Source: an uncultured Gammaproteobacteria bacterium (GTDB lineage Bacteria > Pseudomonadota > Gammaproteobacteria > Xanthomonadales > SZUA-36). Taken from it: a stretch of DNA of 64,000 nt. Where the stretch lies: positions 3,505 to 67,504 of the forward strand of contig CAVWXL010000020.1 of NCBI GenBank assembly GCA_963759035.1. The letters run 5' to 3'. This document shows, one piece after another, positions 25,230-57,785 of this stretch. Below the pieces are notes generated by a model. It saw only the letters and a list, made by a program, of their open reading frames with translations. It was not told the DNA's origin and did no database searches. Position numbers and translations under genes: made by a program. Within the stretch, counting starts at the first letter, position 1; each line of letters starts with the position of its first letter.

Positions 25230-26795
25230 ATGCAGTTTATTCCCAAGTCGGTACTGAGCAAACTCTATAACCGAACGAGCCTGAGAAACACCGAAGGCGC
25301 CGTTCGTTTTAGCGTCAAAAACCGTCTGAGCCCGGCCATGCTCAAAGAGATCTCGCAGATCTCGATTGACGGGCAGGTCATTGCGCACGAGAAAATAACC
25401 GTCGCCGTTGAAGCGAATGACGTGGTAGCCATCAGTGCCATCACCCCGGAATCACCGGCGGACTTTCCACTGGGTACCCTGGTGAACATCTTCCTCGACA
25501 TAGAACCACTTGCCGAGGGCCGTCACGAAATCAGTATGACGTTCGACGCCAAACCCTTCGGCCGGCTGAATCTGGAAGTGCAGGACACGCTGAAGACCGG
25601 CATCCCGGCACCCGGCTCCGTACCACGCGACCCCGAAGACGATTACAGCGAAAATGTCATCCGCCAGCGCCAGGACTTCATAAGGCAACGCTCAGAAAGC
25701 GACCTGACCCACATCTCCAGCTACTCGTTCGATCCGCATGTGACACGGGGCAACATTGAGCACTTTACCGGTGTCGCCCAGGTGCCACTCGGGTTTGCCG
25801 GCCCGCTGCTGGTGCATGGCGAGCACGCCCAGGGTGAATTCTATGTGCCACTGGCCTGCAGCGAAGGCACCCTGGTTGCTTCCTACAACCGCGGTATGAA
25901 AGTCCTGCACCGCAGCGGCGGAGTGAAGTGCGCTGTGGTCGGAGACAATATGCAGCGCGCACCGGTATTTATTTTTGAAGACGCTGCTTCAGCCCGCCGT
26001 TTTGCTGACTGGATCGTGGCGCATACGGAGGAAATCCGGGCCGTATCCGAAGCATCGGACCCCTTCGTTCATCTGAAATACATCGATTACTACCTGGCGG
26101 CGAAATTCTGTTACCTGCGCTTCAACTTCCAGACCGGCGACGCCGCGGGTATGAACATGGTGGGCAAAGCTACCTTTGTGGCCTGCAACTGGATTCTGGA
26201 AAACTGCGATGTGGTGGAGATACAGAGATTCTTCCTGGAATCAAACTTCGCTACCGACAAGAAAGCATCTATGATCAACATGATGCGTTCGCGCGGCAAA
26301 CGGGTCGTAGCCGAGACCGTGGTTAAGCGTGATGTTCTGCTGGAAATCATGGATGCCGATACAGAATCGATTTACTACCACAGCAAGGTCGCCAACATCG
26401 GCTCCCTGATGTCCGGTACCAACAACAACGGCTGCCATGCGGCCAATGCAATCACCGCGATATTCCTGGCCACCGGGCAGGATGTCGCCAATGTGGCAGA
26501 GGCCTCCATGGGTCTGCTCTACTCCGAGCTGACGCCGGAAAACGACCTCTATATTTCGATCACTCTACCGGCCCTTATCGTGGCGACCTGTGGCGGCGGC
26601 ACGGGCCTGCCGACCCAGAAAGAATCCCTGCAGGCGATGGATTGTTACGGACCTGGAAAGGTGCTCAAGTTTGCAGAAATCGTAGCCGGTACCGTATTGG
26701 CCGGTGAAATCTCACTGGCCGCCGCGATCTCCTCGCTGGACTGGGTATCCAGTCACGACCAGTACGGACGTAACGACCCCGGAAAAAAGGTGTAG
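25230..26795 (+). CDS. Class I HMG-CoA reductase-like oxidoreductase with an extra N-terminal domain of about 130 aa
   Basis: Motifs collinear with class I HMGR: NIEHFTGVAQVPLGFAGPL (ENVIG-type), SEGTLVAS (catalytic Glu), DAAGMN, ATDKKAS (Lys), TGQDVANV (Asp), CGGGTG, VSSHDQYGRN (His). Confidence 0.8.
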   Translation: MQFIPKSVLSKLYNRTSLRNTEGAVRFSVKNRLSPAMLKEISQISIDGQVIAHEKITVAVEANDVVAISAITPESPADFPLGTLVNIFLDIEPLAEGRHEISMTFDAKPFGRLNLEVQDTLKTGIPAPGSVPRDPEDDYSENVIRQRQDFIRQRSESDLTHISSYSFDPHVTRGNIEHFTGVAQVPLGFAGPLLVHGEHAQGEFYVPLACSEGTLVASYNRGMKVLHRSGGVKCAVVGDNMQRAPVFIFEDAASARRFADWIVAHTEEIRAVSEASDPFVHLKYIDYYLAAKFCYLRFNFQTGDAAGMNMVGKATFVACNWILENCDVVEIQRFFLESNFATDKKASMINMMRSRGKRVVAETVVKRDVLLEIMDADTESIYYHSKVANIGSLMSGTNNNGCHAANAITAIFLATGQDVANVAEASMGLLYSELTPENDLYISITLPALIVATCGGGTGLPTQKESLQAMDCYGPGKVLKFAEIVAGTVLAGEISLAAAISSLDWVSSHDQYGRNDPGKKV

Positions 26796-27856: not shown

Positions 27857-29452
27857 CTATTGAAGCGCCTCGCACAGCGCCACGTTGTCCAGCACGATCC
27901 GCTGCAGCGGAATCATACCGGACAGGACCGGTGAATCGATCTGATAGGTGAGAATGGCGGCATTGCAGCTGCTCCACCTGATTGTCGCGGTGCCCATTTT
28001 TATAGCCGGACCAGCCACCGGGTCCGAGGCATCGAACACGCCTCCAGACGTGCTGTACAGATCCAGCGTAGCCGTGTCCCCTGCAAACGGACCCTGCAGG
28101 GTAAACCAGCGAGCGCCGGGATCACCGATAATCGCCATAACATCTTCGGGAGGGCGCTCAACATCAAAAGTAAACCAGGCCAGGAACATGACCCCGGCCT
28201 GCTCGAACACGGCTACCAACAAGCCCTGGCCATCGGTCGCCGGATCGAACCAGGCATCGTTCAACCCGGCATTGATCTGAAAGGCTTCCGGGACTACGTC
28301 ACCATCGCTCAGCAGGTAGACACCACCGGACGCACTGCCAACATAGACGCTCCCATCCTCGCCCAGTCCAAAGGTTGCAATTCTGAGCGTCGTATCAGCC
28401 AGCAACGTATTCAGCCAGTCATTCCCTGAACGGGATAAGCCCCAGATGCGGCCGGTGCAATAATCAGCAAACAGGTACATACCCTGCAAATTGGGATAGG
28501 CGTTGCCGCGATAGGTTTCGCCACCCGTGATCGAGCAGTTATTGTTTTCATGGTTATATCCCGAGACCGGCAGGACGAGCCCACTGGTATCACAGCCACC
28601 ATCAACACACTGCGATCCTTCCATGGTGCTCCAGCCGTAGTTCTCGCCACCGGTGGAACTGGCCGCTTGGTAATTGATTTCTTCGAACTCATTCTGTCCG
28701 ACATCTGCAATGAACAAGTCGCCAGTCGAGCGATCGAAACTGATTCGCCAGGGGTTTCGTAGCCCCAGAGCCCAAATTTCATCCCGAACCGCGCCATTAC
28801 CGACGAAAGGATTACCCGCAGGAATCGCATAGGTTCCATGCACCGGATCGACATCGATCCGTATGAGTTTGCCCAACAAAGTGCTGCCGTCCTGCCCACT
28901 GCCGTCCGGATCAAAGGAGCCACCACCGTCTCCCAGGCCAAGGTACAACATGCCATCGTGACCGAATTGCAGCCTTCCGCCATTATGATTAGTGCGCGGC
29001 TGGGCCACGTTCAGAACTTCCACTTTGCTTTGCATATCCGCAACATCCGGGTTGCCGCTCACCCGGAACCGGGCGAGCACAGAATCACCGCCAGCCCCGG
29101 TGTACCAAACGTAAAAGTATCCAGTGGCTGCATAATCAGGGGCAAACGCCAGGCTTAGCAAACCCTGTTCATTGCCCATCGACTCGACTTCATCGCGGAT
29201 GTCGAGAAAGGGCGCTTCGATGACCCCGTCATCATCAAGAATGTAAATTCGGCCACTTTGTTGAACCAGGAACAGCCTTCCGCTACCGTCTCCGGCGTTG
29301 GCAATATCGACTACATCGCTGAGGTCAGAGACCTGTGTTAATTGAAGCTGTATGTCATCAGCGACCACCGGTCCTGCGACCACACTTGAAATCAAAACAA
29401 AAACCACCGCTACCAGCCAGGCGCAGCAGGACGGGATAACAGATTTGGACAC
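27857..29452 (-). CDS. Secreted PQQ-dependent sugar (glucose/sorbosone) dehydrogenase-type beta-propeller with a C-terminal two-Cys module
   Basis: Signal peptide. Family motifs NHNGGRLQFGHDGMLYLGLGDGG and GLRNPWRISFD. The last 140 aa (27860..28279) carry the recurrent WFDP..DGQG...FTFD...C...C module. Confidence 0.85.
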   Translation of the reverse strand: MSKSVIPSCCAWLVAVVFVLISSVVAGPVVADDIQLQLTQVSDLSDVVDIANAGDGSGRLFLVQQSGRIYILDDDGVIEAPFLDIRDEVESMGNEQGLLSLAFAPDYAATGYFYVWYTGAGGDSVLARFRVSGNPDVADMQSKVEVLNVAQPRTNHNGGRLQFGHDGMLYLGLGDGGGSFDPDGSGQDGSTLLGKLIRIDVDPVHGTYAIPAGNPFVGNGAVRDEIWALGLRNPWRISFDRSTGDLFIADVGQNEFEEINYQAASSTGGENYGWSTMEGSQCVDGGCDTSGLVLPVSGYNHENNNCSITGGETYRGNAYPNLQGMYLFADYCTGRIWGLSRSGNDWLNTLLADTTLRIATFGLGEDGSVYVGSASGGVYLLSDGDVVPEAFQINAGLNDAWFDPATDGQGLLVAVFEQAGVMFLAWFTFDVERPPEDVMAIIGDPGARWFTLQGPFAGDTATLDLYSTSGGVFDASDPVAGPAIKMGTATIRWSSCNAAILTYQIDSPVLSGMIPLQRIVLDNVALCEALQ

Positions 29453-34807: not shown

Positions 34808-34896
34808 CCCTTCTGAAATTCTCTGACTTTTCTCCTATTCTGAAGAGACAAAGTCCATCGGGCCCGGAAAGCAAGTCACTTGTGAGGGAATTTCTT

Positions 34897-37718
34897 ATGC
34901 ACAGGCCGATAGTTTCAGTCGTATTATTTCTGCTTATTTCACTATCAAACCAACTGGTCGCTTCAGACCAGAACCGCGTTCCAAACCCCGAGTTCGAAGG
35001 AACCAACGGTGCAAAGCTGGGACAGACCACCGGAAGCGTCCCGGACTACTGGCGGGCCTTCGGGCTGGAAGGCGGCGAAGTTGCCATTGAGATCATCCCG
35101 TTGTCAGCCAATGCCCTGTACCCTGGCAGCCCCGCCACCAATGCCGTCAAGCTGACATTCGTATCATTTGGCGCCGCACAGGGTTTCGACCATGAGGGAA
35201 CACCGTTTAGTCTCGGTCCGGGACACAATTACAAAGCGACTGTGTATATGCGTTCCGCCAACGCCGGCGGAGAGACTCAGGGTGTCTCGGTCTCATTCCC
35301 CATATTCGACGAAAACGGGTTTACCGGCAGGTTCCCCGGATCGTTCAACGCAACGGTCACTTCTGAGTGGGCACAGTATTCCGGCCCCGAATTTATGGAG
35401 GTGGAGGGCACCGCTGCAGATCTCGCCTTCCGGTTGACCGATGACGGCGGGGATAACTCCATCCTGATCGCCATGCCGGTCGTAAACGGGCCTGCTTCAG
35501 AAACGCCTGCGGTCGACTATCCCCCAATTTATACCCCGGGCCGCGATTTTTCTGACACCGACCGGTTCGTATCCACGATGGTTTTTCATTGGTATACAAC
35601 GTTTTCGGGGCAGCTTGATGGGCCCTGGAAACCAGAAGAGGGTCGGGGCAACTGGACGGGTGAGGCCCCATGGTGGCGCGAACAGATCAAGGACATGATG
35701 GATGCCAACATCGACGTTCTCTATGTCCACCTGTTCAACGGTTTCGGCTACCAGCGCGAGCAATTTTTCAAAGCGCTGCATCAGCTTCGAAGCGAGGGTT
35801 ATAACACGCCTTACGTGCTGCCGTTTCTCGATCCACAGATCATCTGGAACGACGCCCCCGTCGATATGAGCACAGAGGCCGGTAAAGATGAGTACACCGA
35901 TTGGTACCGTCTATGGTTTGACCAGTATTTCCGCGAAGAGACGGGGGCCTTCGCAGAGAGCCGCCTGCTGCATATCAATGGAAAAATTGTTCTGAATACG
36001 TGGCACGGCAACCCGAATCGCACGCCAAATCTCTCTTCACTGTCACGGTCCGACCTCGAATCCCGGTTGGCGGACACATTCGGCGAACGTTACCCGAGCT
36101 TCTACAACGGCATCTACCAGATTGCCACAACCAACGGGATTTCGCCGACTTTTACGGATGAAATTGCCCATCAGTTCTCCAATACGGAATATTTCTCCAC
36201 CAATGAATTCAACGGCCGGAGACCGGCCACGATGAAGGCTGGATACTGGGACCAAAACATCCGTGTTCCGGGTTCATTCCTGGCACGCAACGGGGGTAGC
36301 CCCTACGCCATGGCATGGGACGAACTGATCAGCAAACGTAACGGGGGGGAGGGCAACAGCCGATCTACCATGCTTACATCGAATCCTGGAACGAGTATGA
36401 CGAAGGCACCGGCATTTACTCCACGAGCACAGCCCCGCCGTACATTGCCCCGGAAAACCAAAGTGGAAACAACGACACCTGGTCGACCGCCGATAACCCG
36501 CGTGAGTACATCGACAGCACTTTCGAGGGCGCGAAGGATTTCAATGACCATCCGGACCTGGACAGCCAGTTCCTTTGGCACGAATTCCCTCCCGGCCTGG
36601 CGCCGGGTGAAAGCGCAGAGGTTCAGGTATTGGTCCGCAATATGGGAGATATCAAGTGGTCGGACGCGGCCAGTATCAAGCTCGCCCTGACCGATTCAGC
36701 CGGCCAGGATTGGGGGTCCACGATGCAGGCCATTGAGCCCGGTCCAAATGAAGTTGAAAAGTACGGCGGCGTTTTCCGCGGCAGGCCTGTGCTGTTCAAG
36801 TTCACCCTTACCGCCCCGGCAACGCCGGGAGTATACCAACTCACCTACCGGATGATGCGTGATGAGGGTGGTGCAACGCCGTTTGGCGATGAATTGGTGG
36901 TCCAGGTTGCTGTTGGTACCGGCCAGGTGAGCAGCGGGCACAGTGGTGCGTTTTTCAATCCCCTGCGAAATGGCGAGGGCAGCTACGTTGAGATTCTGGA
37001 TGAGACGCGGGCTGTTGTTTACACGTTCACCTACCGCCCGGATGGTTCGGGACTTTCCTGGTTCTTCGGTGTCGGTGACATTGAGGACGGCTCGATTGCG
37101 ATCGGCGATCTTCTGCGGCCCACAGGCACCAGCTTTGGCGATGGTTTTGATACGAACGACATTACCTTTACCCCGGCAGGAACGATGTCCATGAGTTTTC
37201 TCGACTGCGATTCCACCACCAATGAGGGCAGCACGGTATTTTCCGGCGCAGCGGAAATCGGCTATGAATCACTGCTGACACGGGCCAGCCGGCTCAGCCA
37301 GATTACCGGTTGTGGATCAACACCCACCGGCAACGCCGGCTTGTCGGGTTCATTTTATGATCCGGCGCGCAATGGTGAGGGCCTGGTCATCCAGTGGCTG
37401 ACCAACGGTCAGGTACTGCTCATCATGTTCACCTATGACCTGGCGGGGAACCAGTTCTGGACCTTTGGCATCGGAACTCCGCAAGGTAAAAGCATCACCA
37501 TCGAGGCACGGTATGCTTCGGGAACCACATCGTGGGGCAGCGACTTCAATCCGGATGAAGTGGTGCTGACGCCCTGGGGAACGATTACGCTGAACTGGAC
37601 AAGCTGCGACTCGATCAGCTTTAGTTACGAATCGATCGTGGCAGGATTCGGCTCTGCCACGCGGGATTACACGCGCATCTCGACCCTGGCGGGAACAGAG
37701 TGCCCGGACTTCCCCTGA
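34897..37718 (+). pseudogene. Large secreted multidomain protein interrupted by a -1 frameshift in a poly-G tract. Domains: CBM-like N-terminus, glycoside-hydrolase-like TIM barrel, NBR1-type Ig domain, and a tandem two-Cys C-terminal module.
   Basis: Signal peptide MHRPIVSVVLFLLISLSNQLVA. Frame 1 makes sense up to ...ELISKRNGG. Sense then continues in another frame as QPIYHAYIESWNEYDEGTGIY...PGESAEVQVLVRNMGDIKW...YQLTYRMMRDEG..FGDEL (NBR1-like), followed by two module copies at 36930..37718. That second frame has a stop at 36339-36341, so the switch is confined to G7-A-G3 (36343-36353). Confidence 0.6.
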
Positions 37719-40580: not shown

Positions 40581-42008
40581 ATGCATATACTGTTTCTGAA
40601 CCCCCAGGGCAATTTCGACGACGAAGACTCCCGGCTGGCTGAACATCCGGACTTTGGTGGCCAACTGGTCTACGTCAAGGAAATTGCGATGGCGATGGTG
40701 GACCAGGGACACAAGGTCGACATCGTGACCCGGCGAATCGTAGATCCGGAGTGGCCCGAATTCGCGGATGCCGTTGATCACTACACCGGCTATGAATCTG
40801 GCTTACGCATCATTCGCATTCCGTGCGGAGGTGATTCGTTTCTGCCGAAAGAGCAACTCTGGGACCACCTGCCGGAATTCATATCGAACACCCTTCTTTT
40901 CTACGGTAACGAATTGCCGGATTTCGTAACTGCACATTATGCAGACGGGGGCTACTGCGCGTTACTTTTGCAGGCACAGACCGGACTGAAATTCACATTC
41001 ACCGGTCATTCCCTCGGAGCACAGAAGCTGGAGAAGCTGGGAGCAGATAGCTCTAACTCGGTAGAAATGGAGGAACGGTTCTGCTTTTCCCGGCGTATAG
41101 ACGCCGAACGCCTGGCCATGAAAAAGGCCTTCTGCATCATCACCTCGACCCGGCAGGAGCGCCTGAAGCAGTATGCCCATCCACTCTATCGCGGGTCGAT
41201 TGATGTGGATGACGATTCCAGGTTCGCGGTGATCCCGCCCGGAGTGAATACGGATCTGTTCACGACAGAACCCTGTAGTGAAGATCAGCAAGTGGAACAG
41301 TGGCTGGATTCAGAACTGCACGATCCGCAAAGCCCTCATCTGCTGATTGCCAGCAGGATCGATGAGAAGAAAAACATCGGGGCCGCAGTCGAGGCGTGGG
41401 CCTCTTCTGAAGACCTGCATACCCGCGCCAACCTGGCATTGTGCGTCCGCGGTATGGACGACCCGTGGACCGAACTCTCCACGCTGACCGAAGAAGAACA
41501 GGATGTACTGCGGCCCATACTGAAAACGATCGAAAACGCCGGGCTGCGGAACAAGGTCGATTTCCTGAACGTGCAATCGCAATCCGAACTCGCAGCGACG
41601 TATCGCTACTTCGCCAATCACGGTTCATTATTCCTGCTTCCCTCTGTCTACGAACCTTTCGGGCTCGCTCCGATTGAGGCGGCCGCATGCGGATTGGCCT
41701 GCGTCGCGACCAGCAACGGAGGCCCATCTGAAATATTTGAAGACGGTGCCGGGATTCTCGTTGATCCGTTTGATGTGCAGGATATTGTGCGCGGAATCAA
41801 ACAAGCACTGGACCGGCAGTCAGAGTTGTCCGAACGGGGCTGCCAGCGCGTGCTGGACAGGTACACCTGGAAAAAAACGGCTACCCGGTACCTCGACGTC
41901 ATCCAGGCGGGAGTGGCGTCCGGACCGGCGGAAAAACAAGCGATACCTGCACTGGATGCAGGCCCAAGAATCCGCGCCTACCTGGATCAGCGATCCGTCA
42001 ACCAGTAA
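40581..42008 (+). CDS. sps: Sucrose-phosphate synthase-like GT4 glucosyltransferase (GT domain only)
   Basis: N-terminus HILFLNPQGNFD...HPDFGGQLVYVKE is typical of SPS/SuSy-type enzymes. Contains a C-terminal EPFGLAPIEA motif. It sits within a sucrose gene cluster. Confidence 0.75.
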   Translation: MHILFLNPQGNFDDEDSRLAEHPDFGGQLVYVKEIAMAMVDQGHKVDIVTRRIVDPEWPEFADAVDHYTGYESGLRIIRIPCGGDSFLPKEQLWDHLPEFISNTLLFYGNELPDFVTAHYADGGYCALLLQAQTGLKFTFTGHSLGAQKLEKLGADSSNSVEMEERFCFSRRIDAERLAMKKAFCIITSTRQERLKQYAHPLYRGSIDVDDDSRFAVIPPGVNTDLFTTEPCSEDQQVEQWLDSELHDPQSPHLLIASRIDEKKNIGAAVEAWASSEDLHTRANLALCVRGMDDPWTELSTLTEEEQDVLRPILKTIENAGLRNKVDFLNVQSQSELAATYRYFANHGSLFLLPSVYEPFGLAPIEAAACGLACVATSNGGPSEIFEDGAGILVDPFDVQDIVRGIKQALDRQSELSERGCQRVLDRYTWKKTATRYLDVIQAGVASGPAEKQAIPALDAGPRIRAYLDQRSVNQ

Positions 42009-43942
42009 AAAGCGAACGGTGGTATCACCAGCTGATCGTTAAACAGGTGAGGTGACTCTCCCGAGCACAGGTCGCGGAGCATGGCATATTCAAACTGGCC
42101 CCGGTTGCCAAGATCGCTGAGTGTCAACGATTGCGGTGCGTCGTCGAAATTGCCGATGACCAGCACGCTCTCTCCGATCCCTAAAGGATCGCTGCGCATA
42201 AACACAAACAGGTGGGGGTTGCCGGTCTCGATCAATTCACGGTTGTTATAGTCAGCGAACGCCGGCAGACTCTTGCGCACACTGATCATTTTCGAAAGAC
42301 CATCGAATATTTTCTGTTCCGGAGTGCCTTGCTGGTGCCTCAACTCGGCTTTTTCCCAGCTGATCACCGGCCGGTGAATCCAGCGCGTATCGTGCGCTTT
42401 TTCTTCATCGTCCATGAAGGAAAAATCGTTGAGCATGCCGATTTCGTCACCGGAGTACAGCAAGGGTATCCCGCCAAATGACATGATCATTCCATGCAAC
42501 AGCAGTATCAGGTCTATTGTTTTTTGAATGGTCAGCGGGTCGCCCATTTCCAGCGCCGATTCCAATCCAGCCAGCGAGGCAAGAGAACCTGCGATGCGCG
42601 CATCACCGGTTTTCTCATTTTGCGCGAAAGGCTGACCCCGCGCGGGTGAGCCCGTATGTACTCCGGTGAAATAATCCACCAGGAACTTGCGATGGGAGCT
42701 GGGTTCATAACCGGCCTGCCTGATATCGGCGTCATCGAATCCCAGGCCGATGTCATCGTGGCAGCGTACATAATTCAACCACGTTGCCCGGTCGAGTTTG
42801 TCCGGCAGGCTGCGTATCCCCTGGTCCAGCAAGCGTGCATTGCGGGTGGCAACGGCGTCCCAGAGCAGCGCCATCAGGGTGGCGTTGTAAGCAATCTCAC
42901 ACTCCTTGGCGATCACCGCGTCCTCACCGAAGTACTTGATGATCTCCACCGGCGCCACAATCGCCTCAGCGATAAACAGCACACCGGGAGCCGTTACCTG
43001 GCAACAGTCTTTCAGCAATTGCAGTATCAGGTGCGCTTCGCGCTCGTTCTGGCTGGTCGTCCCGATCTTCTTCCAGAGAAACGCAACGGCATCCAGTCGC
43101 AGGATGTCAGCGCCCTGGTTTGCCCAGTAGAGCAGAACATCGAGCATTTCGATGAACACTGCCGGGTTTCCATAGTTAAGATCCCACTGGTAGTGGTTGA
43201 ACACGGTCATCACCCACTTCCCCATGGTCTCGTTCCAGGTGAAATTACCCGGCGATGTTTCGGGAAATACTTCCGGCAAGGTTTCCTCAAACATGTCCGG
43301 GATTTCCCGACTCTTGAACGCGTAGAAATAGTCCTGGTATTTTTTCTCGCCGGAGCGCGCACGCTGCGCCCATTCGTGCTGGTCGGAAACGTGATTAACC
43401 ACAACATCCAGTGTCAGCAACATGTCACGGGCGCGCATCCTGCGGCCCAGTTCACGCAATTGGTCAAGGCTGCCGGCGCGGTCATCGACATCGCGGTAGT
43501 CACTCACCGCGTAACCGCCGTCACTGGCGCCCGGCGGGCATTTGAGGATGGGCATTACGTGCAGCAGGTTTACACCAAGCTCCTGCAAATAGGGTAATCG
43601 TTCACCCACACCTTTCAGGTCTCCGGCAAATGCACTGGTATACAGAGCCATTCCTACCCATTCCTGGCTGAGGAACCAGTTGTGGTCATTTTCACGCTTT
43701 ACATCGAGTTTTTTCAGGTCCTTGGCACGCTGGATGTAATTTATAGCCAGCACCTCCACAAGGCGCAGCAGTTGCTCGTCAAAATCATCGCGTTTGCCGT
43801 AGAGCAGGTGGAAAAGCGAGTAAATGGCATAAAAATTCGCGCCCAGACGCGTGTAAAAGTGGCGCAGGTCACGCTTTCGAATTTCCGGCCTGAGCTGATT
43901 CAGGATCCGATTCAACTGGGAGTGTGAAATTTGTTCGTACAT
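41987..43942 (-). CDS. ams: Amylosucrase (GH13_4 sucrose:alpha-1,4-glucan glucosyltransferase)
   Basis: Extended collinearity with Neisseria-type amylosucrase: DLKGV..LPYLQELGVNLLHVMP, SDGGYAVSDYRDV, VVNHVSDQHEWAQRA, FQWDLNYGNP, ILRLDAVAFLWK, AEAIV, YVRCHDDIG. ATG at 43942 preferred as the start. Confidence 0.85.
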   Translation of the reverse strand: MYEQISHSQLNRILNQLRPEIRKRDLRHFYTRLGANFYAIYSLFHLLYGKRDDFDEQLLRLVEVLAINYIQRAKDLKKLDVKRENDHNWFLSQEWVGMALYTSAFAGDLKGVGERLPYLQELGVNLLHVMPILKCPPGASDGGYAVSDYRDVDDRAGSLDQLRELGRRMRARDMLLTLDVVVNHVSDQHEWAQRARSGEKKYQDYFYAFKSREIPDMFEETLPEVFPETSPGNFTWNETMGKWVMTVFNHYQWDLNYGNPAVFIEMLDVLLYWANQGADILRLDAVAFLWKKIGTTSQNEREAHLILQLLKDCCQVTAPGVLFIAEAIVAPVEIIKYFGEDAVIAKECEIAYNATLMALLWDAVATRNARLLDQGIRSLPDKLDRATWLNYVRCHDDIGLGFDDADIRQAGYEPSSHRKFLVDYFTGVHTGSPARGQPFAQNEKTGDARIAGSLASLAGLESALEMGDPLTIQKTIDLILLLHGMIMSFGGIPLLYSGDEIGMLNDFSFMDDEEKAHDTRWIHRPVISWEKAELRHQQGTPEQKIFDGLSKMISVRKSLPAFADYNNRELIETGNPHLFVFMRSDPLGIGESVLVIGNFDDAPQSLTLSDLGNRGQFEYAMLRDLCSGESPHLFNDQLVIPPFAFYWLTDR

Positions 43943-43964
43943 CTTGTTTATCGTTGCCTTTTGC

Positions 43965-44840
43965 TCATAATTGCCAATTACTGATATAGGGCTTGTAGAA
44001 CGCCGGGTCAGAAACGGTCGCACCGCGTTGCCCCACCACAGCCGATGCAAATGCCTGAGCCCTGTCCAGGCTGACCTGTGGACTCCAATCCAATTCCAGG
44101 CCCAGCATGATCACGGAAGTGAACGCATCACCGGCGCCCACGGTGTCAGCCACCCGGATCCCCGATTTCGGCCGCACTTCATGCAGTCCTCCCTCTGAGG
44201 TCATCAGGGTCGCACCGGCAGAACCTCTTGTGAGAACCACGCCACGCAAGCCCTTCGCCTCCAACAAAGCCCTGGCACGGGATACATCGTCAGGCCCGTG
44301 AGGCCATAATTCCTCCAGTTCATGCTGGTTGAGTTTTACCCAGTGGGCCTGGCCCATCCAATGCAGAACCTGTTCCGGCTGCCACCAGGGTGGCCGCAGA
44401 TTAACATCGACAAAGACGGTTGCCGGCACGCTGGACTGTATCTGCTTCAGAGACTCGCGTGAATAACGGTCACGCAAAGCGAGGCTCCCATGGTACAGCA
44501 CCCGGCACTCGGGCAAATGCCGGGGCGTCTCAATCCGGTCATAGGCGACTGGATGGACAATGTCATAGGAGGGCTCTCCTTCGATAAAGCTGACCAGTAC
44601 CTTTCCCGTAGCAAGATCCGAATCTGTCCGCAGACCACGGGTGTCCATTGCCCAACCCTGCATGGCTGATAGAATCTGCCGGCCTTCTTCATCTGCACCC
44701 ACACAGCTGATGAACAAAGGATTCCGTCCAAAGGCCTGCAAATGCCATGCGACGTTAAAAGGCGCCCCGCCGAGTACCGGCCGACCCTCGGGAAAATGGT
44801 CGAACAGTACTTCGCCAAAAACGCATATACGGCTGTCCAT
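43965..44840 (-). CDS. PfkB-family fructokinase
   Basis: N-terminus ICVFGEVLFD...GGAPFNVA and ATP site DTVGAGDAF. Sits immediately upstream of ams on the same strand. Confidence 0.8.
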   Translation of the reverse strand: MDSRICVFGEVLFDHFPEGRPVLGGAPFNVAWHLQAFGRNPLFISCVGADEEGRQILSAMQGWAMDTRGLRTDSDLATGKVLVSFIEGEPSYDIVHPVAYDRIETPRHLPECRVLYHGSLALRDRYSRESLKQIQSSVPATVFVDVNLRPPWWQPEQVLHWMGQAHWVKLNQHELEELWPHGPDDVSRARALLEAKGLRGVVLTRGSAGATLMTSEGGLHEVRPKSGIRVADTVGAGDAFTSVIMLGLELDWSPQVSLDRAQAFASAVVGQRGATVSDPAFYKPYISNWQL

Positions 44841-44963
44841 TTCTGCTCCGCCGGGATCAACTGGAAAGGAGTCCTATCCTAAGGGCTAAGCAGCGAAAAG
44901 GAAAACTGTGAATCCTTGCATTAATACAGATAAAATACACGGCTGACCAAGGGATGCTTTCCG

Positions 44964-46592
44964 ATGACCACAAATTTCAAATCACTAAACTCAGCGATTC
45001 CTTCCGGCGTGATGTTCAACGCATACCCCGACAGCATTGGAAAAACAATGGAAGACATCATGCAGATGCTGGGCAGCCCGGAATTAGAAGATGTCTTTTC
45101 ACTGTTCTACGTCCTGCCGACATTTTTCAACACCGACCTCGACCGCGGCTTCTCTGTCATTGATTACGACCTCAACGATAAACTGGTTATCCCGGAAGAC
45201 CCGGAAAAGGCCGATGAGCTGAACATCCAGTTCAAGTTCGACCTGGTTCTGAACCATCTTTCGGTGGGCTCTCCCCAGTTCCAGGACATGCTCAAAAACG
45301 GCGACAGCTCCCCCTATAAAAATTTCTTTATAGACTGGAACGAGTTCTGGGCGAATGAAGGCGAAATGGGGCCGGACGGCCACATCATTCCCAGGCAGGA
45401 TCACCTTGATTTGCTGTTCATGAGAAAACCGGAACTGCCGATCCTGATGGTTCGTTTTCCGGATGGCAGTGAGCGCCCTTACTGGAATACTTTTTACCAG
45501 GAAATAAGCTATCCGGACGACACAGGGCTTTCGCCGGAAGAACGTGAACAAAGCCGCCAATACCTCGGTCAAATGGATCTGAATGCGCGTTCCGAGGATG
45601 TCTGGGCATTTTATGATGAAACGCTGAAGAAACTTCGTCACTATGGCGCCCGGCTGGTCAGGCTCGATGCCTTTGCCTACCTGCACAAACAGGTTGGAAA
45701 GAGTAACTTTTTCAACAAACCCGGCACCTGGGAATACCTCAACCGGCTGAAGGGCCTGGCCGAAAAACACGACCTGGTGCTGCTGCCCGAAATTCATGCA
45801 GAGTATGGCAGCGGGCTACACGAGGAGGTCGCATCAAACGGTTTTCCGGTCTATGACTTTTTCCTTCCCGGACTCGTCCTAGATGCACTGGACCGTTCGA
45901 CGAACCAACCACTGCTTCGCTGGATTGGCGAATTGATCGACAAAGACATCAAGACCGTCAACATGCTGGGTTGCCATGATGGCATCCCGGTTCTCGATCT
46001 TCGGGGAAAGGCGGTTGATGGTGACTACCGCGAAGGTCTGCTCAGCGATGAGCAGATTGAAGCAGTTATCAAAAATGTCCTGGCGCGCGGCGGCAGAATC
46101 AAGAACCTGTATGGAGCCAATGGCAAGAAGATTGCCTACTACCAGGTCAACGCAACCTACTTCAGCGCATTGGGTGAAGACGAGCAGAAACTTCGTCTGG
46201 CACGCGCCATCCAGATGTTCACTCCAGGCATTCCGCAGGTCTGGTACCTGGATCTCTTTGCCGGCAGCAACGACTACGCTGCTGCTGACAATGGCGGCAC
46301 CGGCGGGCACAAGGAAATCAATCGTACTACGCTCTCACAGGCTGATATCCGGGAGCGGCTGGGCAACTCCGTAGTCCAGGACCAGTTACAGTTGATGAGG
46401 TTGCGCAACACCTCACCCGCATTCGGCGGGCAACTGGAGGCGGTCAACTCCGAACCACACGTCCTGCATCTGGTCTGGCAAAACGGGAACCATCGCGCGT
46501 GTTTGCAGGCTGACTTGCGCGATCATGGCTTTAGCGTATCGACCTCTGATGGCGCCGGAAACGAACTCACGATGAATTTTCCACGGGACTGA
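44964..46592 (+). CDS. GH13_18 sucrose-phosphorylase-family glycoside phosphorylase; acceptor specificity not determinable from sequence
   Basis: VMFNAYPDSIG, FDLVLNHLS, RLDAFAYL, LLPEIH and GCHDGIP are the family's conserved regions. At 542 aa it is longer than the sucrose phosphorylases I recall. Confidence 0.75.
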   Translation: MTTNFKSLNSAIPSGVMFNAYPDSIGKTMEDIMQMLGSPELEDVFSLFYVLPTFFNTDLDRGFSVIDYDLNDKLVIPEDPEKADELNIQFKFDLVLNHLSVGSPQFQDMLKNGDSSPYKNFFIDWNEFWANEGEMGPDGHIIPRQDHLDLLFMRKPELPILMVRFPDGSERPYWNTFYQEISYPDDTGLSPEEREQSRQYLGQMDLNARSEDVWAFYDETLKKLRHYGARLVRLDAFAYLHKQVGKSNFFNKPGTWEYLNRLKGLAEKHDLVLLPEIHAEYGSGLHEEVASNGFPVYDFFLPGLVLDALDRSTNQPLLRWIGELIDKDIKTVNMLGCHDGIPVLDLRGKAVDGDYREGLLSDEQIEAVIKNVLARGGRIKNLYGANGKKIAYYQVNATYFSALGEDEQKLRLARAIQMFTPGIPQVWYLDLFAGSNDYAAADNGGTGGHKEINRTTLSQADIRERLGNSVVQDQLQLMRLRNTSPAFGGQLEAVNSEPHVLHLVWQNGNHRACLQADLRDHGFSVSTSDGAGNELTMNFPRD

Positions 46593-46593
46593 A

Positions 46594-47406
46594 ATGCACA
46601 TACTTGCTACGGATATGGACAGGACCCTTCTGCCAAACGGCAGCTGGGAAAGCGACAAGAACGCCATCGGGCTGTTTAATCAGCTCACCCGGGATTCCGG
46701 CGTACTCGTTGTCTATGTAACGGGCAGGAACCTGAACCTGACGGAAGGCGCTATCCGGGAATATGGCGTCCGTTACCCCGACGTACTGATCGGCGATGTC
46801 GGTACGTCTATTCGCAAATACGAGAACGGCGAGTGGGCGTTCGACGATGGATGGCTTGCCCACGTCAGGCGTGCCAGCCCACGCTGGCATGCGACCGAAA
46901 TAAAGGCTGCAGTGGCCGGCATCGACGGCCTGAAAGAGCAGGAGCCAGAGCACCTCAACCCGTTCAAACAGAGTTACTACGTTGACCATGCACGCAAGGA
47001 AGAAATTCTCAGGGCGGTCGACCAACGGGTCAAAGGCAGGTTCGACGAGGTTATCGTCTATAGTTTTGACTCCCTGGACGGCAAGGGCCTGCTCGACTTT
47101 CTGCCGGAAAGCGCTACGAAACAAACAGCACTGGAATATGTCTGCGAAGAATTTGAATGTAAGCAACAGAATGTCGTTTACTGCGGAGACAGTGGCAACG
47201 ACGTTTTTCCTTTAACAGCAGGATTTTGCGGTGTACTGGTTCGCAACGCAGATGAGCAGTTGGTGGAGGATGTCCGGGCGGCCATGGCCCGCAATGAGGC
47301 TTTGAAAGTCTATTTCGCCAAGGGTGCGTTTATGGGCCTGAATGGTTACTACACCAGCGGCGTGATCGAAGGCGCCTTTTTCTACGGTCTGTTCAAAGAC
47401 AGTTAA
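46594..47406 (+). CDS. HAD-IIB phosphatase, sucrose-phosphate-phosphatase-like
   Basis: DMDRTLL catalytic motif I, VYVTGR motif II, and GDSGND motif IV. Starts 1 nt after the phosphorylase stop. Confidence 0.7.
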   Translation: MHILATDMDRTLLPNGSWESDKNAIGLFNQLTRDSGVLVVYVTGRNLNLTEGAIREYGVRYPDVLIGDVGTSIRKYENGEWAFDDGWLAHVRRASPRWHATEIKAAVAGIDGLKEQEPEHLNPFKQSYYVDHARKEEILRAVDQRVKGRFDEVIVYSFDSLDGKGLLDFLPESATKQTALEYVCEEFECKQQNVVYCGDSGNDVFPLTAGFCGVLVRNADEQLVEDVRAAMARNEALKVYFAKGAFMGLNGYYTSGVIEGAFFYGLFKDS

Positions 47407-47420: not shown

Positions 47421-48951
47421 ATGACCGAACTACGCACAACTGCCTACAAGGCTCTGGCCACTCTCTTCATTTTACTGGCGGTCAGCCTGCCAGCCCCTGC
47501 AGCTTCGGAAACCGGGTCACTTTCCGGCTTCGTCGAACGCGGGATGGAACTCTGGCAGGTTCCGGGAATGGCCGTGACGGTTGTCGACAGTGACCGGACT
47601 CTATTTCGGCAGGGATTCGGCGAAACGGCGATTGATAACGGACAGGCCATTGATGAACACACGCTGTTTGCCATCGCCTCCACAACAAAGGCAATGGTGG
47701 TCGCTGCCATCCTGATCCTGGCAGACGAGGGCAAACTGTCGCTGGATGACCCCATCGTCAATCACATCCCGGAACTGCATTTCAGCGATCCGATGCTAAC
47801 GGAACAACTGATGGTGCGGGACCTGCTGGCCCACCGGACGGGCCTGCCGAGCACCGATTTCTGGACGTTTTTCATGGGCATGCCGCTGGATGAGCAGATC
47901 CGGCGTCTTGGCGCTATAACGCCTGCCGCTCCCATGCGCACCCGGCTCATCTACCAGAACACCATGTATGAACTGGCCGGCGTACTGATTGAACGGGTTA
48001 GCGGCAATTCCTGGGACTCCTTCGTCCGGAGTCGCCTGTGGCTGCCCATCGGAATGCATGAGACATTCGCTGCACGCAGCCGGATCGGGGCTGACCTGAA
48101 TCGCGTAACACCTTATTTTTCAACCGACGGCAATCTCGTCCAGGCCAATTGGGACATACCCGCCGACCTGGCCGAGGCCGCTGGTTCTGTCTGGTCTTCG
48201 ATACACGACATGGGGCTTTGGGCCCAGTTTCTGCTTCGCGGCGGCGTCACCAGCGGGGGCGAGCGCCTGGTTTCCAGCAACAGCATTGAGGAGATGTTCA
48301 AACCCCAGCAACTATCCAGCGCTGATGATTTCTATCCAACGACTGCACTTACCCTGCCCAACTGGATCAGTTACGGCCTGGCCTGGTTTCAACAGGACTT
48401 CCAGGGGCGAAAAATCGACTTCCATACCGGTAGCCTGTCCGGCCTGATCGCCATCATCGGCCTGGACCGTGCCGGCGACCGCGCCATGGTTGCGCTGGGT
48501 AACCGCGATCATGCCGAGATGCGGCATGCCATTTTATGGGAAGTCATGGACGACACGCCGGCCGGAGAACGGCGTGACTGGAACCGGGAAATCCGGGATT
48601 TATACGACGGACTGGCTGAACAGGGCGAGGAGGGGTGGCAAAAAACCGAACAACAGCGCCTGAAGAAAAGTAAACCCAGCCTGGCAAAGAAGGCCTATCT
48701 CGGCATGTACGAAAGCCCGGCCATGGGCCGTATACGCATAGAACCGGACGGCAGGAATATGGTTGCTGAACGCCGGTAGCGTCAGCTTGCCGATGACTTA
48801 CTGGCACCTCGATACGTTCCTGGTGGAATACCCCGAGTGGCAACTGAAGGAATTCGCGGAGTTCCGGATCGGCCCCAACGGTCAAATTGACGAACTGGAA
48901 CTTTTCGGAGAAAATTTCAAGCCGATTGCGGAAACCGCCGACGGAGAGTGA
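47421..48951 (+). pseudogene. Beta-lactamase-family serine hydrolase with a DUF3471-like C-terminal domain, split by a frameshift near 48755-48765
   Basis: Signal peptide and SxxK motif (ASTTKAM) after VPGMAVTVV. The tail (GSVSLPMTYWHLDTFLVEY...) continues in the next frame (ORF 48763..48951). Confidence 0.8.
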
Positions 48952-48959
48952 TCGTGAAA

Positions 48960-50091
48960 ATGCCCCGCCTGTTTTTATCCATCGCCCTTCTTGGCCTGGT
49001 TGTCAGCGTCAATACGGCCGCCCAGCAGGTTTCAGACGGGGTGGATGTGCCGGGGCTGGAAAGTTTTGATCAGGCCATGCTGGCCTTCATGCAGGATCAT
49101 GACATTCCGGATGGCCAGTGTCAGCAAACCGCTGACTTCAACCCTGGTTCACCGCTTGCAACAAGACGGGGGCGCATCCACTTCCGATACCCTCGCACAA
49201 CACCTCGACCTCTCGCCTCAGCCGGGACAGACGGCAGACGCCATGCTGGGAGGCATCACGATTCGAAACCTGCTCGAGCACCTGGCCGGTTTCAATAGCC
49301 CGCAGGGTTACGGTTACGACCCGGTTTTCAATGATGCGGCCATTGTCAGCGCGCTGGGCACCGATTACCCGGTGCTTAAGTCCCATATCCGTACGTTCAT
49401 GAATGGTAAGGCACTGGCCAACGCCCCGGGCACTACCTACAACTATTCCCAGGGTTGGTCGGTGCGCGACTACGGCAATGGCAACCGCAACACCTGGCAC
49501 AACGGCAGTCTTCCGGGGACAACTTCCTGGGTGGTTCGTTTCCAGAATGGGTACAACTACGCCGCTGCTTTCAATCGCCGCAATGAAACCTCACCCGGTT
49601 CATGGCTGGCCGGCCTCACCAGCAAGATGAATGCCGCTCACGACCAGGTCGCCCAATGGCCGGACCACGACCTTTTCCCATCAACACTATCCGCGGCCCC
49701 TGAATCCATTGGGGCCCGCTATGCAGGCTCCTGGTATGACGTGACCCACGACGGCGAGGGCTTCGTCGTGCAGATCATCAACCCAAGAACGGCTGTCGTC
49801 TACTGGTTTACCTATGACTCCGAAGGACGTGCTGCCTGGATGCTGGGAATTACCAGTGAGGGAACCCTGGAAAATGGCGTTGATATTGGCATGCTCCGGC
49901 CCGAAGATGGAAACTTCGGCGTCGCTTTCGACCCGGCCAGGGTGGTGAAGCAGCCCAATGGAGAACTGATCCTCAAGCTTACTTGCGGATCCGGCTCGAT
50001 GAGCCAATTTACCGGTGGCAGTTCCGGATTTCCCGACGTCAACCAGGCCCTGACCCGCCTGGCCGGGTATGTTAATCCGCCCTGCCCTTAG
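48960..50091 (+). pseudogene. Second beta-lactamase-family hydrolase carrying a C-terminal two-Cys module. Frame-disrupted, and apparently missing the segment before SxxK.
   Basis: Frame 0 gives signal peptide MPRLFLSIALLGLVVSVNTAAQ and ...FMQDHDIPDG. Sense then resumes in frame +1 at ASVSKPLTS. The roughly 30-40 residues that normally separate the 'IPG' and 'SxxK' regions are absent in all frames. The C-terminal 125 aa (49714..50088) form the recurrent module. Confidence 0.65.
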
Positions 50092-50465: not shown

Positions 50466-50897
50466 TTATGAACCTCCAGCGGGACGCTTTCCTTGCCAGC
50501 AGGAAATGGCAAAGGTGCCGGTCTTGCCGCCTGCCGTCTTCACGCCCGTGTCACTGAGCGTCATAGCCCCGCAACTGTCCTTGGTCTGCCCTACCTGGGG
50601 GGTCGCCGTCGCCACGAAATTCTGATTGGCGTTGCTGGTTGCAAGGGCCACAACGTAGTGGCCGTTGGGCGTCGCTCCACCACAACTGGCTGCGTCGTAA
50701 ACATTGTTACGAATGAACAACCGTTCCTGGCAGGCGGAAGCCGCCAGCAGACCGTCAATGGCCTCACTGCGGTTAGTCCGCAGAACATATTGCATATAGC
50801 TCGGCACCGCCAGGCTCAACAGGATTGTGAGTATGGCAACGGTGATCATGGCCTCCACTATCGTGAATCCGCCCTGGCTCTCTTTTTTGCTGCCCAT
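50466..50897 (-). CDS. pilE: Type IV pilus minor pilin PilE
   Basis: Prepilin leader followed by G/FTIVEAMITVAIL, then PSYMQYVLRTNRSEA, which is typical of PilE. Last gene of the minor-pilin operon. Confidence 0.85.
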   Translation of the reverse strand: MGSKKESQGGFTIVEAMITVAILTILLSLAVPSYMQYVLRTNRSEAIDGLLAASACQERLFIRNNVYDAASCGGATPNGHYVVALATSNANQNFVATATPQVGQTKDSCGAMTLSDTGVKTAGGKTGTFAISCWQGKRPAGGS

Positions 50898-50902
50898 GAC
50901 GG

Positions 50903-51229
50903 TCAGCTTTCCAGGCCGGACTTGCTGCCGCGGATCAGGATCACGGCCTCAAGCACTTGCTTGCCCTGATCCCCACTCTGCTCGCCGAAGATCAGGCGCA
51001 CGTCATCACCCGGACTAAGATCCTCCTCACCCATTTGCTCGCCCTGGTAAATGATCCGGGTGCTTTCGGTGACAACTTCATAAACAACACCGTCCACTTC
51101 AATTCTTTCCTGGTTGAAGGAAACGCTGTCCAGCTTACCCTCGATGGCCTCAGCCATTGCCGCTACCGGTGTCAGCATCAGCAGCGCGGCTGCTATCCAT
51201 ACTTTCTTAAACATATCTTTCTCCAGCAT
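50903..51229 (-). CDS. Small secreted protein in the pilY2 position (between pilY1 and pilE)
   Basis: Signal peptide MFKKVWIAAALLMLTPVAAMA (an alternative start is at 51214). About 100 aa. The assignment is positional only; no sequence similarity is claimed. Confidence 0.45.
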   Translation of the reverse strand: MLEKDMFKKVWIAAALLMLTPVAAMAEAIEGKLDSVSFNQERIEVDGVVYEVVTESTRIIYQGEQMGEEDLSPGDDVRLIFGEQSGDQGKQVLEAVILIRGSKSGLES

Positions 51230-51235
51230 GATACA

Positions 51236-54200
51236 TCAGTGGGTCTGCATCCAGTTCTGTCGGCCACAGGCCAACGGTTGGTGGGCCGCTGCAACCATCA
51301 CAATACTGCCGTTGGTCCGGGTCGTATAGGTGAACGACTTGGCGCCGTCTGACCCACAACCACGCGGTGCGTTGGGGCGCAGTGGGAAGACTGAACCCAG
51401 ATCCGCCGGCCTGTCGTCGTACAGCAACGCCGGCAAGTTGGGAATACTCAGCATTTCTATACCTACCGGGTTGGCCATTACATCATCGGCCGTTTCGTCG
51501 TATGGGTTGTCCACCATCAGCACGTCATCTTCATTGATCGTATTGTCATCGGTGATATCGATAACCGGGAAACGAGGCGCATTGCCAGTTTCAGCGTTCA
51601 GTGCCATCAGCCAGCCACTACCTCCGGCCGAGCATACATCTCCTTCCGGAATCAGCGAGACCAGGATGGCGATGTTGTCACGCAGAATGATCTTTCTCAC
51701 TACGCGTTCGCCTTCTACCGGCAGGTCGACCATCCAGCCACGCGAATCGGGATCACCGTTGTCATCGAACCAGACCGGAGTGCCGGGACCGTAGTCGTGG
51801 ATCACTCGCCTATTGCTTGCCGAATCCACTGACATGATGGATGGAGTCAGATCAGAGCGGGAAAAATCATGGTCGCCCGTATTGTTTCGCTGGTTCAGGG
51901 CCTTGTTGTAAAAGCCATCGCGATCCCAAATCCCATACACAGTCTGTGTTTGTGCTCCTTCTACCACGTCGTCATTGACCTCAAGATACTTGCCGGTTCC
52001 AAACAGCACCATGACACCCTCTCGGATGGACAGCGGGTGACGCATAATGGCGGGACGGGTGGTAATCGCCTGGCGGTTACCGTCAGAATCCTTTGCGATG
52101 AACAGCGGCTCACCGCCGAACGATATGGACCAGCTGGAAGCGGAACTGGAGGTCACATCCACTTTCCACATATTACCGTCGAGGTCTCCAAGGTAGATAA
52201 AATCTGAAATGCCGTCGCCGTCTATGTCAGCCACTGCAGGTGCGGACAGGCCATCAGCACCGGGCACTTCGATTTTGCGATAATCCGCTGAAGACCAGCC
52301 GTCCATGCCTTCGTTGATGAAAACCACGTAAACATACTGTTTGCCTTCAGCGGAGGCATGTCCATCAGCGACGGTATTATTGTATCCGGAAGTGAAAATG
52401 GCGGCCCATTTACCGTTGGCCATCTTACGGATTTGCGGATCGCCAAATATGAAACCCAGGTCCGCATCGTCTTCGTCGGTGAATTCCCACATGACATCAT
52501 CTGCACCAAAAGTATTGGGATCTGTGATGTCCAGTGCGTATAAGCCGTGCCCGCCACCGCGGAGGGCACCAACCAGGACAGACTTCCAGCCATTGGCGGA
52601 CTCAATGTCGCCGTACACCGGTGATCCATCGACGTAAAAGTCATGGTAGTAGCCGGGCGAGGTCAATTCCGGCAGCTTCCCGATAACTTTGTTGGGTACA
52701 AATGCAAACAACTCGGCACCATTGGCTTCGTTGAACGCGTGCAGCATGCCGTCGTTGGCGCCAACATAAATGACCGGATCGCGGTCTTTGTTACCATATG
52801 CGAATGAGGAGTAACCGCCAAACGGGTAATAGAACGACGGGAAGCTGACGTATTCCGGATCCGAATGCGCGATATCGCCCAGGCGGTGCTCGCGGCTTCG
52901 GAACTTGCCGCCTTCGAAGGCACTGGAACCGCGGATAAAGTTCAGACGGTCCTGCCCGTCGCTGTCTTCATCACCCGTCTGCGGGTTGACGCTCAGCAGG
53001 TCTTTTTGCGCTTCATTTATGTCGTCCCAGGTGAAATTGCCGCCGTTGCCCGTGGCTGGGTTGTAGGTGAAGACCTTTCTGGCGCCGGTAAACCAGGAAT
53101 CAGATTTGGTATCGAGTATGTCACCGGCTTCCCAGGCAATCGTGCCCAGCTCTCCGTCAGCGGAATTCACGTTTATCGCCAGCAGGGAACCATGCCAGTC
53201 GGCCGCATCGAACTTGGCCTGGAATACCTTGGATTCACTGGAGATTGACCCACCGTTGGTGGCGCCTGATGCGGCGCCGCCGACCCGGTCACTGATATCC
53301 AGGATGGCATTGGTCAATTCTGAAATCAGCTCTTCGGGCCGTTTCGCCGAGATGTACTCGCCGCGACTGTTCCAGGCTGCGTGCCACAGATCGTCAACGC
53401 GCCGCTCCTCGTCATTGGCGCCCGACAGGTACCATTTGTTGCCATTGGTCAGGTTGTTCGGCCAGCCATCGTCATCGGTATCCACCAGCGAACCGGTGAT
53501 TCCAAAGCCAATGGTGAAGGTCGACAAATGCTGATGGCTGGCAGAGTCAAACTGATCCGTCGGCACCAGGTTGGGTAGAGGCGAAAGATCCTTGTCGTAA
53601 TAGTACTTTGCTACGTCGGCGAGCAGCACCCGGGTTTCAGAACCGGTACCGTTGAAAACCACTCCGTTATCACCATCGACGTCTGTTCCGACGACCGAGG
53701 GGTTGCTTCCATTCCAGTAGCCATCCGAAAACAGGATGGCAAAGTTCTTCTGGCAGGCTGACGCGATTGGACTATCCTTGCCACTGAGCTCGTCGTCAAA
53801 ATAGCGACCGACCCGCTCCAGACCGCGCCGCAATGGCGTGCCATAGGCATTCTGGGGGTGCGTGAGGTACTCTTTGATCAAGTTGGCATTGTGTGTCGTA
53901 TAGTCATTAACCAGCGGTCCAGGCTGTTCAACGAACACATCATAGTCGTTGATCAGGCTGAAACCGTAACGGAACGAAGGCAAGTCCGTGACCACCCGGG
54001 CCACAGAGGCGCGAGCGACCATTGCACGGCGCCGGTAATACTGGAACCAGTTGGCCACGTTCTGTTGCAATTGTGTAATTGACCCATTGGCGCCAAGCGC
54101 AGCCTGGCAGAGGGCATCCGCGCCGGCCAGCACGGTAATTGTTGGGTTCAGGCCGTTATCGTCGGGGGCATAATTGTAGAGCTTGCAGGTATACGAACCT

Positions 54201-54925: not shown

Positions 54926-54954
54926 CCTTGAACTCCAGTCAGATGTTTTCTAGC

Positions 54955-56372: not shown

Positions 56373-56389
56373 AATATTTATGCTCCGAT

Positions 56390-56914: not shown

Positions 56915-56925
56915 AGCTCAGTTCC

Positions 56926-57768: not shown

Positions 57769-57785
57769 TGGCACGATACCTGCAT
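57769..57785 (+). promoter_or_regulatory. Candidate sigma-54 (RpoN) promoter of the PilA-like pilin gene
   Basis: TGGCACGATACCTGCAT, with the -24 GG and -12 GC correctly spaced. It lies 37 nt upstream of the ATG at 57822, in an AT-rich divergent intergenic region. pilA is RpoN/PilSR-dependent in Pseudomonas aeruginosa. Confidence 0.7.

Follow-up and report, generated by a model that had tools for sequence, protein, structure and literature searches.

A previously unnamed two-cysteine module with a predicted eight-stranded barrel fold recurs on unrelated exported proteins of uncultured Gammaproteobacteria

Several described groups of domains come close to the module reported here, which ends four exported proteins encoded in a 64,000-nt stretch of DNA from an uncultured Gammaproteobacteria bacterium (assembly GCA_963759035.1, contig CAVWXL010000020.1; the whole stretch is hereafter called the window). 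The calycins, which include lipocalins such as Blc, Bla g 4 and the nitrophorins as well as avidin and streptavidin, are stand-alone carriers. Their signature is an N-terminal 3-10 helix and a strand-A Trp ('GxW') that packs on an Arg or Lys at the end of the last strand, and avidin-type barrels form dimers or tetramers. The C-terminal domain of the type 9 secretion system (T9SS; Por_Secre_tail) of the Bacteroidota is a seven-stranded sandwich of about 80 residues. Accessory modules such as PPC, PKD and the carbohydrate-binding modules (CBMs) are appended to exported hydrolases, are flexible in position and are often repeated. Finally, the proteins that serve as cargo of the type 11 secretion system (T11SS, with its Slam secretor) have a common C-terminal beta-barrel and variable N-termini, and their genes usually adjoin that of their secretor (PMC12282271). 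The module shares features with each of these groups and differs from each of them.

A first-pass annotation of the window had described this module in six copies, at the ends of four signal-peptide proteins (A to D, Table 1) whose N-terminal parts are unrelated. A profile hidden Markov model (HMM) built from the six copies was run against all stop-to-stop fragments in the six frames of the whole window. Exactly six domains were found, with independent E-values (iE) from 5e-42 to 2e-55, and their limits matched the coordinates annotated earlier to within a few codons. There was no seventh copy in this search, the next-best fragment having an E-value of 0.36. When each copy was scored with a profile lacking any copy from the same protein (leave-one-out, Z = 4000), all six were recovered far beyond chance, at E-values from 1.2e-9 for copy A to 5e-43, those of B1, B2, D1 and D2 lying between 9e-35 and 5e-43. 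Pairwise BLASTP also linked single to tandem copies (A with B2, 2e-7; C with D2, 1e-11). Both results show that the single-copy instances are significantly related to the tandem ones, and the observation of one homologous module on four otherwise unrelated exported proteins is confirmed.

The alignment of the six copies spans about 130 columns. The columns that are invariant in all of them (G20, G22, F39, T40, W61, G82, F85, G99 and the second Cys) bear out the motif that had been proposed: they correspond to the two Gly of an 'xGxG' turn, the 'FT' of FTYD, a Trp, a 'G..F' pair, a further Gly and the last Cys. In copy C, the first Cys lies one position earlier than in the other five. Copies B1 and D1 are 56% identical and copies B2 and D2 65%, and the B and D cassettes as a whole share 64% DNA identity across 762 nt, whereas no significant similarity was found between the N-terminal parts of proteins B and D. 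This indicates that the two-barrel cassette has been shuffled between genes.

No Pfam-A or NCBIfam model matched the module region of the four window proteins at E <= 0.1, the only hits being to partner domains, and sequence searches of the PDB with profiles of 6 and 88 sequences returned only chance-level local matches (Knr4/SMI1, carbonic anhydrase, the CBM56 of BH0236 and Fab chains). CBM56 was considered as a candidate and rejected because the match is sub-threshold and covers only some 20-40 residues: CBM_56 scored 19.2 bits against a cutoff of 27 over 21 residues, in protein D only, and PDB entry 5t7a gave an E-value of 0.26 across about 40 residues. Relatives of the module are labelled 'hypothetical protein' in their sources, where the precomputed Pfam annotation covers partner domains only, and no description of the module was found in the literature on Wenzhouxiangella, on lipocalin-like C-terminal domains or on the motif strings. 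An exhaustive profile search of 50%-identity cluster representatives gave 8,405 matches at E <= 1e-3, 5,551 at 1e-10 and 2,075 at 1e-30, although the profile contained some flanking columns, so that some of the weak hits may be fragments of partner proteins. The module is a large domain family previously unnamed in the libraries searched, and its first description as lying outside the named families holds.

Structure prediction gave confident AlphaFold2 models. Copy A (88 aligned sequences) was modelled with a mean predicted local distance difference test score (pLDDT) of 89.7 and a predicted template modelling score (pTM) of 0.81. The model has a short helix before strand 1, eight strands (15-18, 26-32, 37-45, 63-73, 76-83, 100-111, 114-121 and 126-134) and a C-terminal helix (140-146). 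The B1-B2 tandem was modelled as two eight-stranded barrels (pLDDT 92.7, pTM 0.90), and DSSP assigned eight strands to each module in the models, forming an antiparallel up-and-down barrel. Copy A belongs to the most abundant subtype, subtype A. Between its strands 3 and 4, this subtype carries some 17 highly conserved extra residues ('ERPPEDV.A.LG.PGHRW') that the B, C and D copies lack. Model confidence is lowest in this insertion (pLDDT 61-75), which may be a loop for a partner or a ligand.

In a Foldseek comparison with the PDB, the best-ranked matches of the single barrel were nearly all small eight-stranded barrels, none of them significant (best E-values 0.004-0.04, TM-scores mostly <0.5). 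They comprised the lipocalins Bla g 4 (E 0.04), milk lipocalin and nitrophorin 2 (E 0.0095), avidin, wilavidin, the TbpB, LbpB, fHbp and NHBA barrels, and designed barrels with TM-scores up to 0.67 on the target; for the best calycins the TM-scores were 0.26-0.51. The predicted barrel of about 130 residues resembles the calycins in topology, in the short helix before strand 1 and in the C-terminal helix of subtype A. W17, the strand-1 Trp at the 'GxW' position, and R134, an Arg of the last strand, are both conserved to at least 90%. As in calycins, the C-terminal segment is probably linked to the barrel by a disulfide. The module differs from them in having no detectable sequence relation, since local hhalign comparisons of a domain profile of 373 sequences with Blc, avidin, streptavidin and beta-lactoglobulin, whose sequences had been entered by hand, gave probabilities of <=1%. 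It also differs in use: it is a fused accessory, often in tandem, on dozens of enzyme types. Judged from the models, the module would therefore be calycin-like at the fold level only and lie outside every lipocalin and avidin family. A predicted fold of a known class is put to unusual use here: within one bacterial order, it serves as an accessory module with many different partners.

The two-cysteine pattern turned out to be near-invariant. Exactly two Cys occur in the C-terminal 45% of the domain in 372 of 373 distinct copies, 371 copies have a spacing of 30-34 residues between them, and 344 contain no further Cys. By the up-and-down topology, the turn after strand 6, which carries the first Cys, and the segment after strand 8, which carries the second, would lie at the same end of the barrel. 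A disulfide is hence geometrically plausible, and the pair probably forms a single bond that staples the barrel.

Species-representative genomes were scanned with patterns from the subtype-A alignment, which biases the resulting taxonomic picture towards this subtype. The scan confirmed 226 stretches, and 79 loci were kept, 49 of them labelled Lysobacterales, Xanthomonadales or Wenzhouxiangellaceae and 21 unclassified Gammaproteobacteria; the remainder included a few Chromatiales and Competibacteraceae and one Gemmatimonadales. Up to eight loci came from a single metagenome-assembled genome (MAG). Overall, the module is common among uncultured relatives of Xanthomonas from marine and soil habitats. 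The 91 module-bearing open reading frames (ORFs) contained 59 Pfam families, among them NHL, GSDH, Endonuclease I, FG-GAP, GDSL lipase, cupredoxin, Kelch, FGE-sulfatase, cyclophilin, CARDB, PKD and PPC. A Sec-like hydrophobic N-terminus was present in 71 of the 89 ORFs having an upstream stop. Copies on unrelated partners, in many MAGs, are 50-65% identical to copy A of the window.

The module had been called strictly C-terminal. This is correct in the window, where all four proteins end 2-5 residues past the second Cys, and for most relatives: of 97 ORFs in related genomes, 84 have no residue beyond the module. It is not correct for the family as a whole: among 146 high-scoring representatives, the module was C-terminal in 114, internal in 17 and N-terminal, directly after the signal peptide, in 15. 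P0155, P0249 and P0171 exemplify these other placements, the last having DUF3179 after the module. Two copies were found in 105 of these representatives. Stand-alone forms also exist, consisting of a signal peptide and the module (P0025, P0026) or of a lipobox and the module (P0011). As stated in the first-pass annotation, the four window proteins have no transmembrane segment after the module and no match to the PEP-CTERM or GlyGly-CTERM models. In large CARDB/PPC proteins, another conserved, Cys-bounded domain of about 110 residues follows the tandem module ('NLCxGS..W.FDWPD ... GW.WRYR ... F.V...PC'; P0142, P0144, P0147, P0148, P0149, P0153, P0157, P0158, P0160 and P0170); it has no Pfam match.

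Taken together, the positional freedom, the tandem cassettes, the stand-alone forms and a fold class of ligand binders favour a binding or tethering module over an obligatory C-terminal tag, and we give this reading a probability of about 0.42. The module would be a self-folding domain of about 130 residues, an eight-stranded up-and-down barrel with probably one disulfide. Uncultured Lysobacterales (Wenzhouxiangellaceae and relatives) attach one copy, or a cassette of two, to many unrelated enzymes and repeat proteins that are exported by Sec. It could act as a non-catalytic binder of a single ligand common to its bearers; a glycan, a lipid or some other constituent of the cell's own envelope or matrix would be candidates. 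Binding would keep the exported enzymes tethered near the cell, and tandem copies would raise avidity. The module is comparable to PPC, PKD and the CBMs, which are likewise appended to exported hydrolases, positionally flexible and often repeated; PPC, PKD and CARDB even occur with it in the same proteins. It is unrelated to these modules in sequence, however, and a carbohydrate-binding role is putative. The earlier interpretation, which had proposed surface anchoring, carbohydrate binding or secretion targeting, is as a whole partly supported.

Several points weigh against a binding or tethering role. No ligand or binding site was identified for the module, and conservation, when compared among the loops, was not clearly concentrated at one end of the barrel. 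The conserved residues are mostly Gly, aromatic residues and Cys and may be purely structural. Neither the single nor the tandem model had a Foldseek match in the PDB at E <= 1e-3, so the term 'calycin-like' is a fold-class call on a model, and the partner fragments possibly present among the weak profile hits would reduce the size of the family. The module is very acidic (median pI 4.05, median net charge -14), but its partner domains are acidic as well (-7.5 vs -10.1 per 100 aa), which makes charge uninformative. Moreover, the bias towards the extreme C-terminus and the many copies per genome are also expected of a sorting domain.

A sorting or secretion domain is the alternative that survives best, although we regard it as rather unlikely. 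An outer-membrane machine for export or surface display, either dedicated or general, would recognise the barrel, which may then be cleaved or anchored; the functional analogue would be the T9SS C-terminal domain or the eight-stranded barrel at the C-terminus of T11SS cargo. This explanation is kept alive by the C-terminal bias, by the many paralogues per genome on unrelated passenger domains and by the 50-65% identity of copies on unrelated partners, which suggests a shared, conserved partner. The lineage-restricted distribution is also in line with it. With the T9SS domain, the module has in common that it is lineage-restricted, mostly C-terminal and present many times per genome on unrelated secreted enzymes; it differs in predicted fold, in phylum, in having no Pfam or NCBIfam match to it and in not being confined to the C-terminus. 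The likeness to the T11SS cargo barrel (TbpB and LbpB lobes, fHbp, NHBA, hemophilin) lies in a predicted eight-stranded, C-terminal barrel on Sec-exported proteobacterial proteins with variable N-terminal domains, a concept described in PMC12282271, and in the weak Foldseek matches mentioned above. Against this, neither TbpB_B_D nor any other cargo-barrel Pfam model matched the module, and most of its bearers have ordinary signal peptides, not lipoboxes. The N-terminal, internal, tandem and stand-alone forms also misfit a terminal signal.

Gene neighbourhoods argue in the same direction. T11SS cargo genes usually lie beside the gene of their secretor (PMC12282271), whereas the four module genes are dispersed in the window and do not form one operon, and related genomes likewise carry many dispersed copies. 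No DUF560/Slam gene or other secretion gene was found among the annotated ORFs of the window. In a survey of the neighbours at the 79 related loci, of about 8 kb each, no outer-membrane protein and no TonB-dependent receptor recurred beside the module genes. A co-occurring secretion gene, which the first-pass annotation had proposed to look for, was not recovered at these 79 loci. The recurrent neighbours were shadow ORFs and a family of transmembrane regulators, the latter present, as a raw count, in 12 of the 79 loci. These regulators are paralogous among loci and are composed of a Trans_reg_C or guanylate cyclase domain, a transmembrane segment, a TolB_N-like domain and TPR repeats (L017:2107-3759, L018:2192-3796, L028:6294-8423, L036:375-2174, L046:5755-8430, L072:4441-6471 and L080:89-1870). 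On contig L080, the regulator gene is followed by five consecutive genes, each ending in the module. No such regulator gene is present in the window. A more far-reaching form of the sorting explanation appears clearly unlikely: Lysobacterales would have an undescribed pathway for sorting or surface display, with the barrel as its recognition and attachment domain. Such a pathway would be the proteobacterial equivalent of the T9SS C-terminal domain system and would handle dozens of exoproteins per cell, the N-terminal and stand-alone forms being secondary uses.

It is quite improbable that the module is a structural helper, that is, a stabilising, solubilising or oligomerising appendage for enzymes in saline extracellular conditions without a specific ligand. 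The stand-alone secreted and lipoprotein forms have nothing to stabilise, and an identity of 50-65% across unrelated partners exceeds what a passive stability tag needs. The strong negative charge of the module would fit such a role, but it would add little to partner domains that are nearly as acidic. The same explanation could draw on the fold-determining nature of the mainly Gly, aromatic and Cys conserved positions, on the presence of avidin and wilavidin among the best fold matches and on the pTM of the tandem model, which implies that the two barrels pack against each other. Lastly, a capture of small molecules or metals in the manner of hemophilin, TbpB or the lipocalin siderocalins, with a cofactor or nutrient handed to the fused enzyme or to a receptor, is very improbable: the calycin-like fold class is dominated by small-ligand binders and stand-alone lipoprotein and secreted versions exist, but the partners (nuclease, PPIase, lipase, pyrroloquinoline quinone (PQQ) dehydrogenase, cupredoxin, propeller repeats) have no common cofactor, no clustered His, Cys or Tyr residues that would hint at a site for metal or haem are conserved in the module, and the loci surveyed have no recurrent TonB-dependent receptor.

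Thousands of exported proteins of Gammaproteobacteria from sediment, soil and saline habitats carry the module, and naming it would annotate a recurring part of their exoproteome. If the module is a tether, as in the binding reading favoured here, it would explain how these uncultured degraders avoid losing their nucleases, lipases, dehydrogenases and proteases by diffusion. Should it serve as a signal for export or display instead, a sorting route not yet described in Proteobacteria would be indicated. The compact barrel with its predicted disulfide, for which the single and tandem models are both confident, might also be tried as a scaffold for fusions or display.

The module-bearing genes of the window are listed in Table 1. 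All four host proteins have a plausible Sec signal peptide at the N-terminus, as judged by eye without a predictor.

Table 1. Module-bearing genes and module copies in the window (window positions; iE from the six-frame HMM search; leave-one-out E with Z = 4000).
Feature	Coordinates	Strand	iE	Leave-one-out E	Description
Gene A	27857..29452	-			Signal peptide, GSDH beta-propeller, module; 531 aa
Module copy A	27866..28282	-	5e-42	1.2e-9	Single copy of subtype A (loop 'ERPPEDV..G.PG.RW'); C-terminal end of protein A
Gene B	34882..37718	+			Signal peptide, about 480 aa without Pfam match, N_BRCA1_IG-like Ig domain, two modules
Module copy B1	36918..37316	+	2.8e-54		First predicted barrel of tandem cassette
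Module copy B2	37323..37706	+	2.5e-55		Second predicted barrel; protein end 37715, stop codon 37716..37718
Gene C	48948..50091	+			Signal peptide, beta-lactamase-fold hydrolase, module
Module copy C	49702..50088	+	2.6e-45	2.3e-17	Single copy
Gene D	61138..63090	-			Signal peptide (MNKYWLLIVLLTWFPVAEA), about 380 aa, possibly beta-helix, two modules
Module copy D1	61543..61941	-	3.3e-54
Module copy D2	61147..61536	-	2.3e-55		Stop codon 61138..61140

Protein A is similar to PQQ-dependent glucose/sorbosone dehydrogenases (GSDH, PF07995, E 7.8e-42 at residues 51-373), and its gene has an ortholog with 81% nucleotide identity in a Wenzhouxiangellaceae MAG (locus L001). In protein B, the Ig domain (N_BRCA1_IG, E 1.9e-7) directly precedes the cassette. 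Gene B is split between two frames, with ORFs 34882..36690 and 36630..37718, the second frame being open from position 36342. The upstream ORF carries the signal peptide and has a tail of low-complexity junk, and a run of seven G (36344..36350) coincides with the frame change. The split could be due to a homopolymer error in sequencing or assembly, or could be a real frameshift or pseudogene. The sole library match of protein D was choice_anch_Q, which is sub-threshold (E 0.007). Its likely start is the ATG at 63090 and not the TTG at 63273, with which the ORF had been listed (61138..63273).

Gene C, whose product matches Beta-lactamase (PF00144, E 3.8e-14), is also distributed over two frames, with ORFs 48948..49298 and 48991..50091 and a frame change near 49110 (approximately 49100..49120). 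The frame of the signal peptide stops at 'HDIPDG' and that of the enzyme begins with 'ASVSKPL'. Directly upstream lies a second beta-lactamase-fold gene (47421..48779) without the module; the last 30 or so residues of its product ('YLGMYESPAMGRIRIEPDGRNMV') resemble the beginning of another, truncated domain. By the spacing in this paralog, gene C seems to lack roughly 35 residues ahead of the SxxK motif. The disruption could correspond to a deletion with frameshift, which would make gene C a pseudogene, or to an assembly collapse.

The window is syntenic with a contig of an uncultured Wenzhouxiangellaceae MAG (81-89% nucleotide identity), and its gene context is that of an ordinary chromosome, with genes for glycogen and sucrose metabolism, CrcB, dehydrogenases, a type IV minor-pilin cluster and PGA_cap. 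The type IV pilus minor-pilin cluster (50466..58292) lies between genes C and D. It encodes a ComP_DUS-like pilin, PilY1 (1229 aa), PilX, PilW, a Tt1218-like protein, a GspH/FimU-like protein and one further pilin. Region 25230..26795 encodes an HMG-CoA reductase with its N-terminal domain (PF00368, PF25653), an enzyme of the mevalonate pathway that is not usual in Gammaproteobacteria. Finally, a sucrose-synthase-like GT4 glycosyltransferase, an alpha-amylase-family enzyme, an unannotated 542-aa ORF without Pfam match (44964..46592) and a sucrose-6-phosphate phosphatase are encoded together at 40581..47406, which may be a locus for sucrose as a compatible solute.

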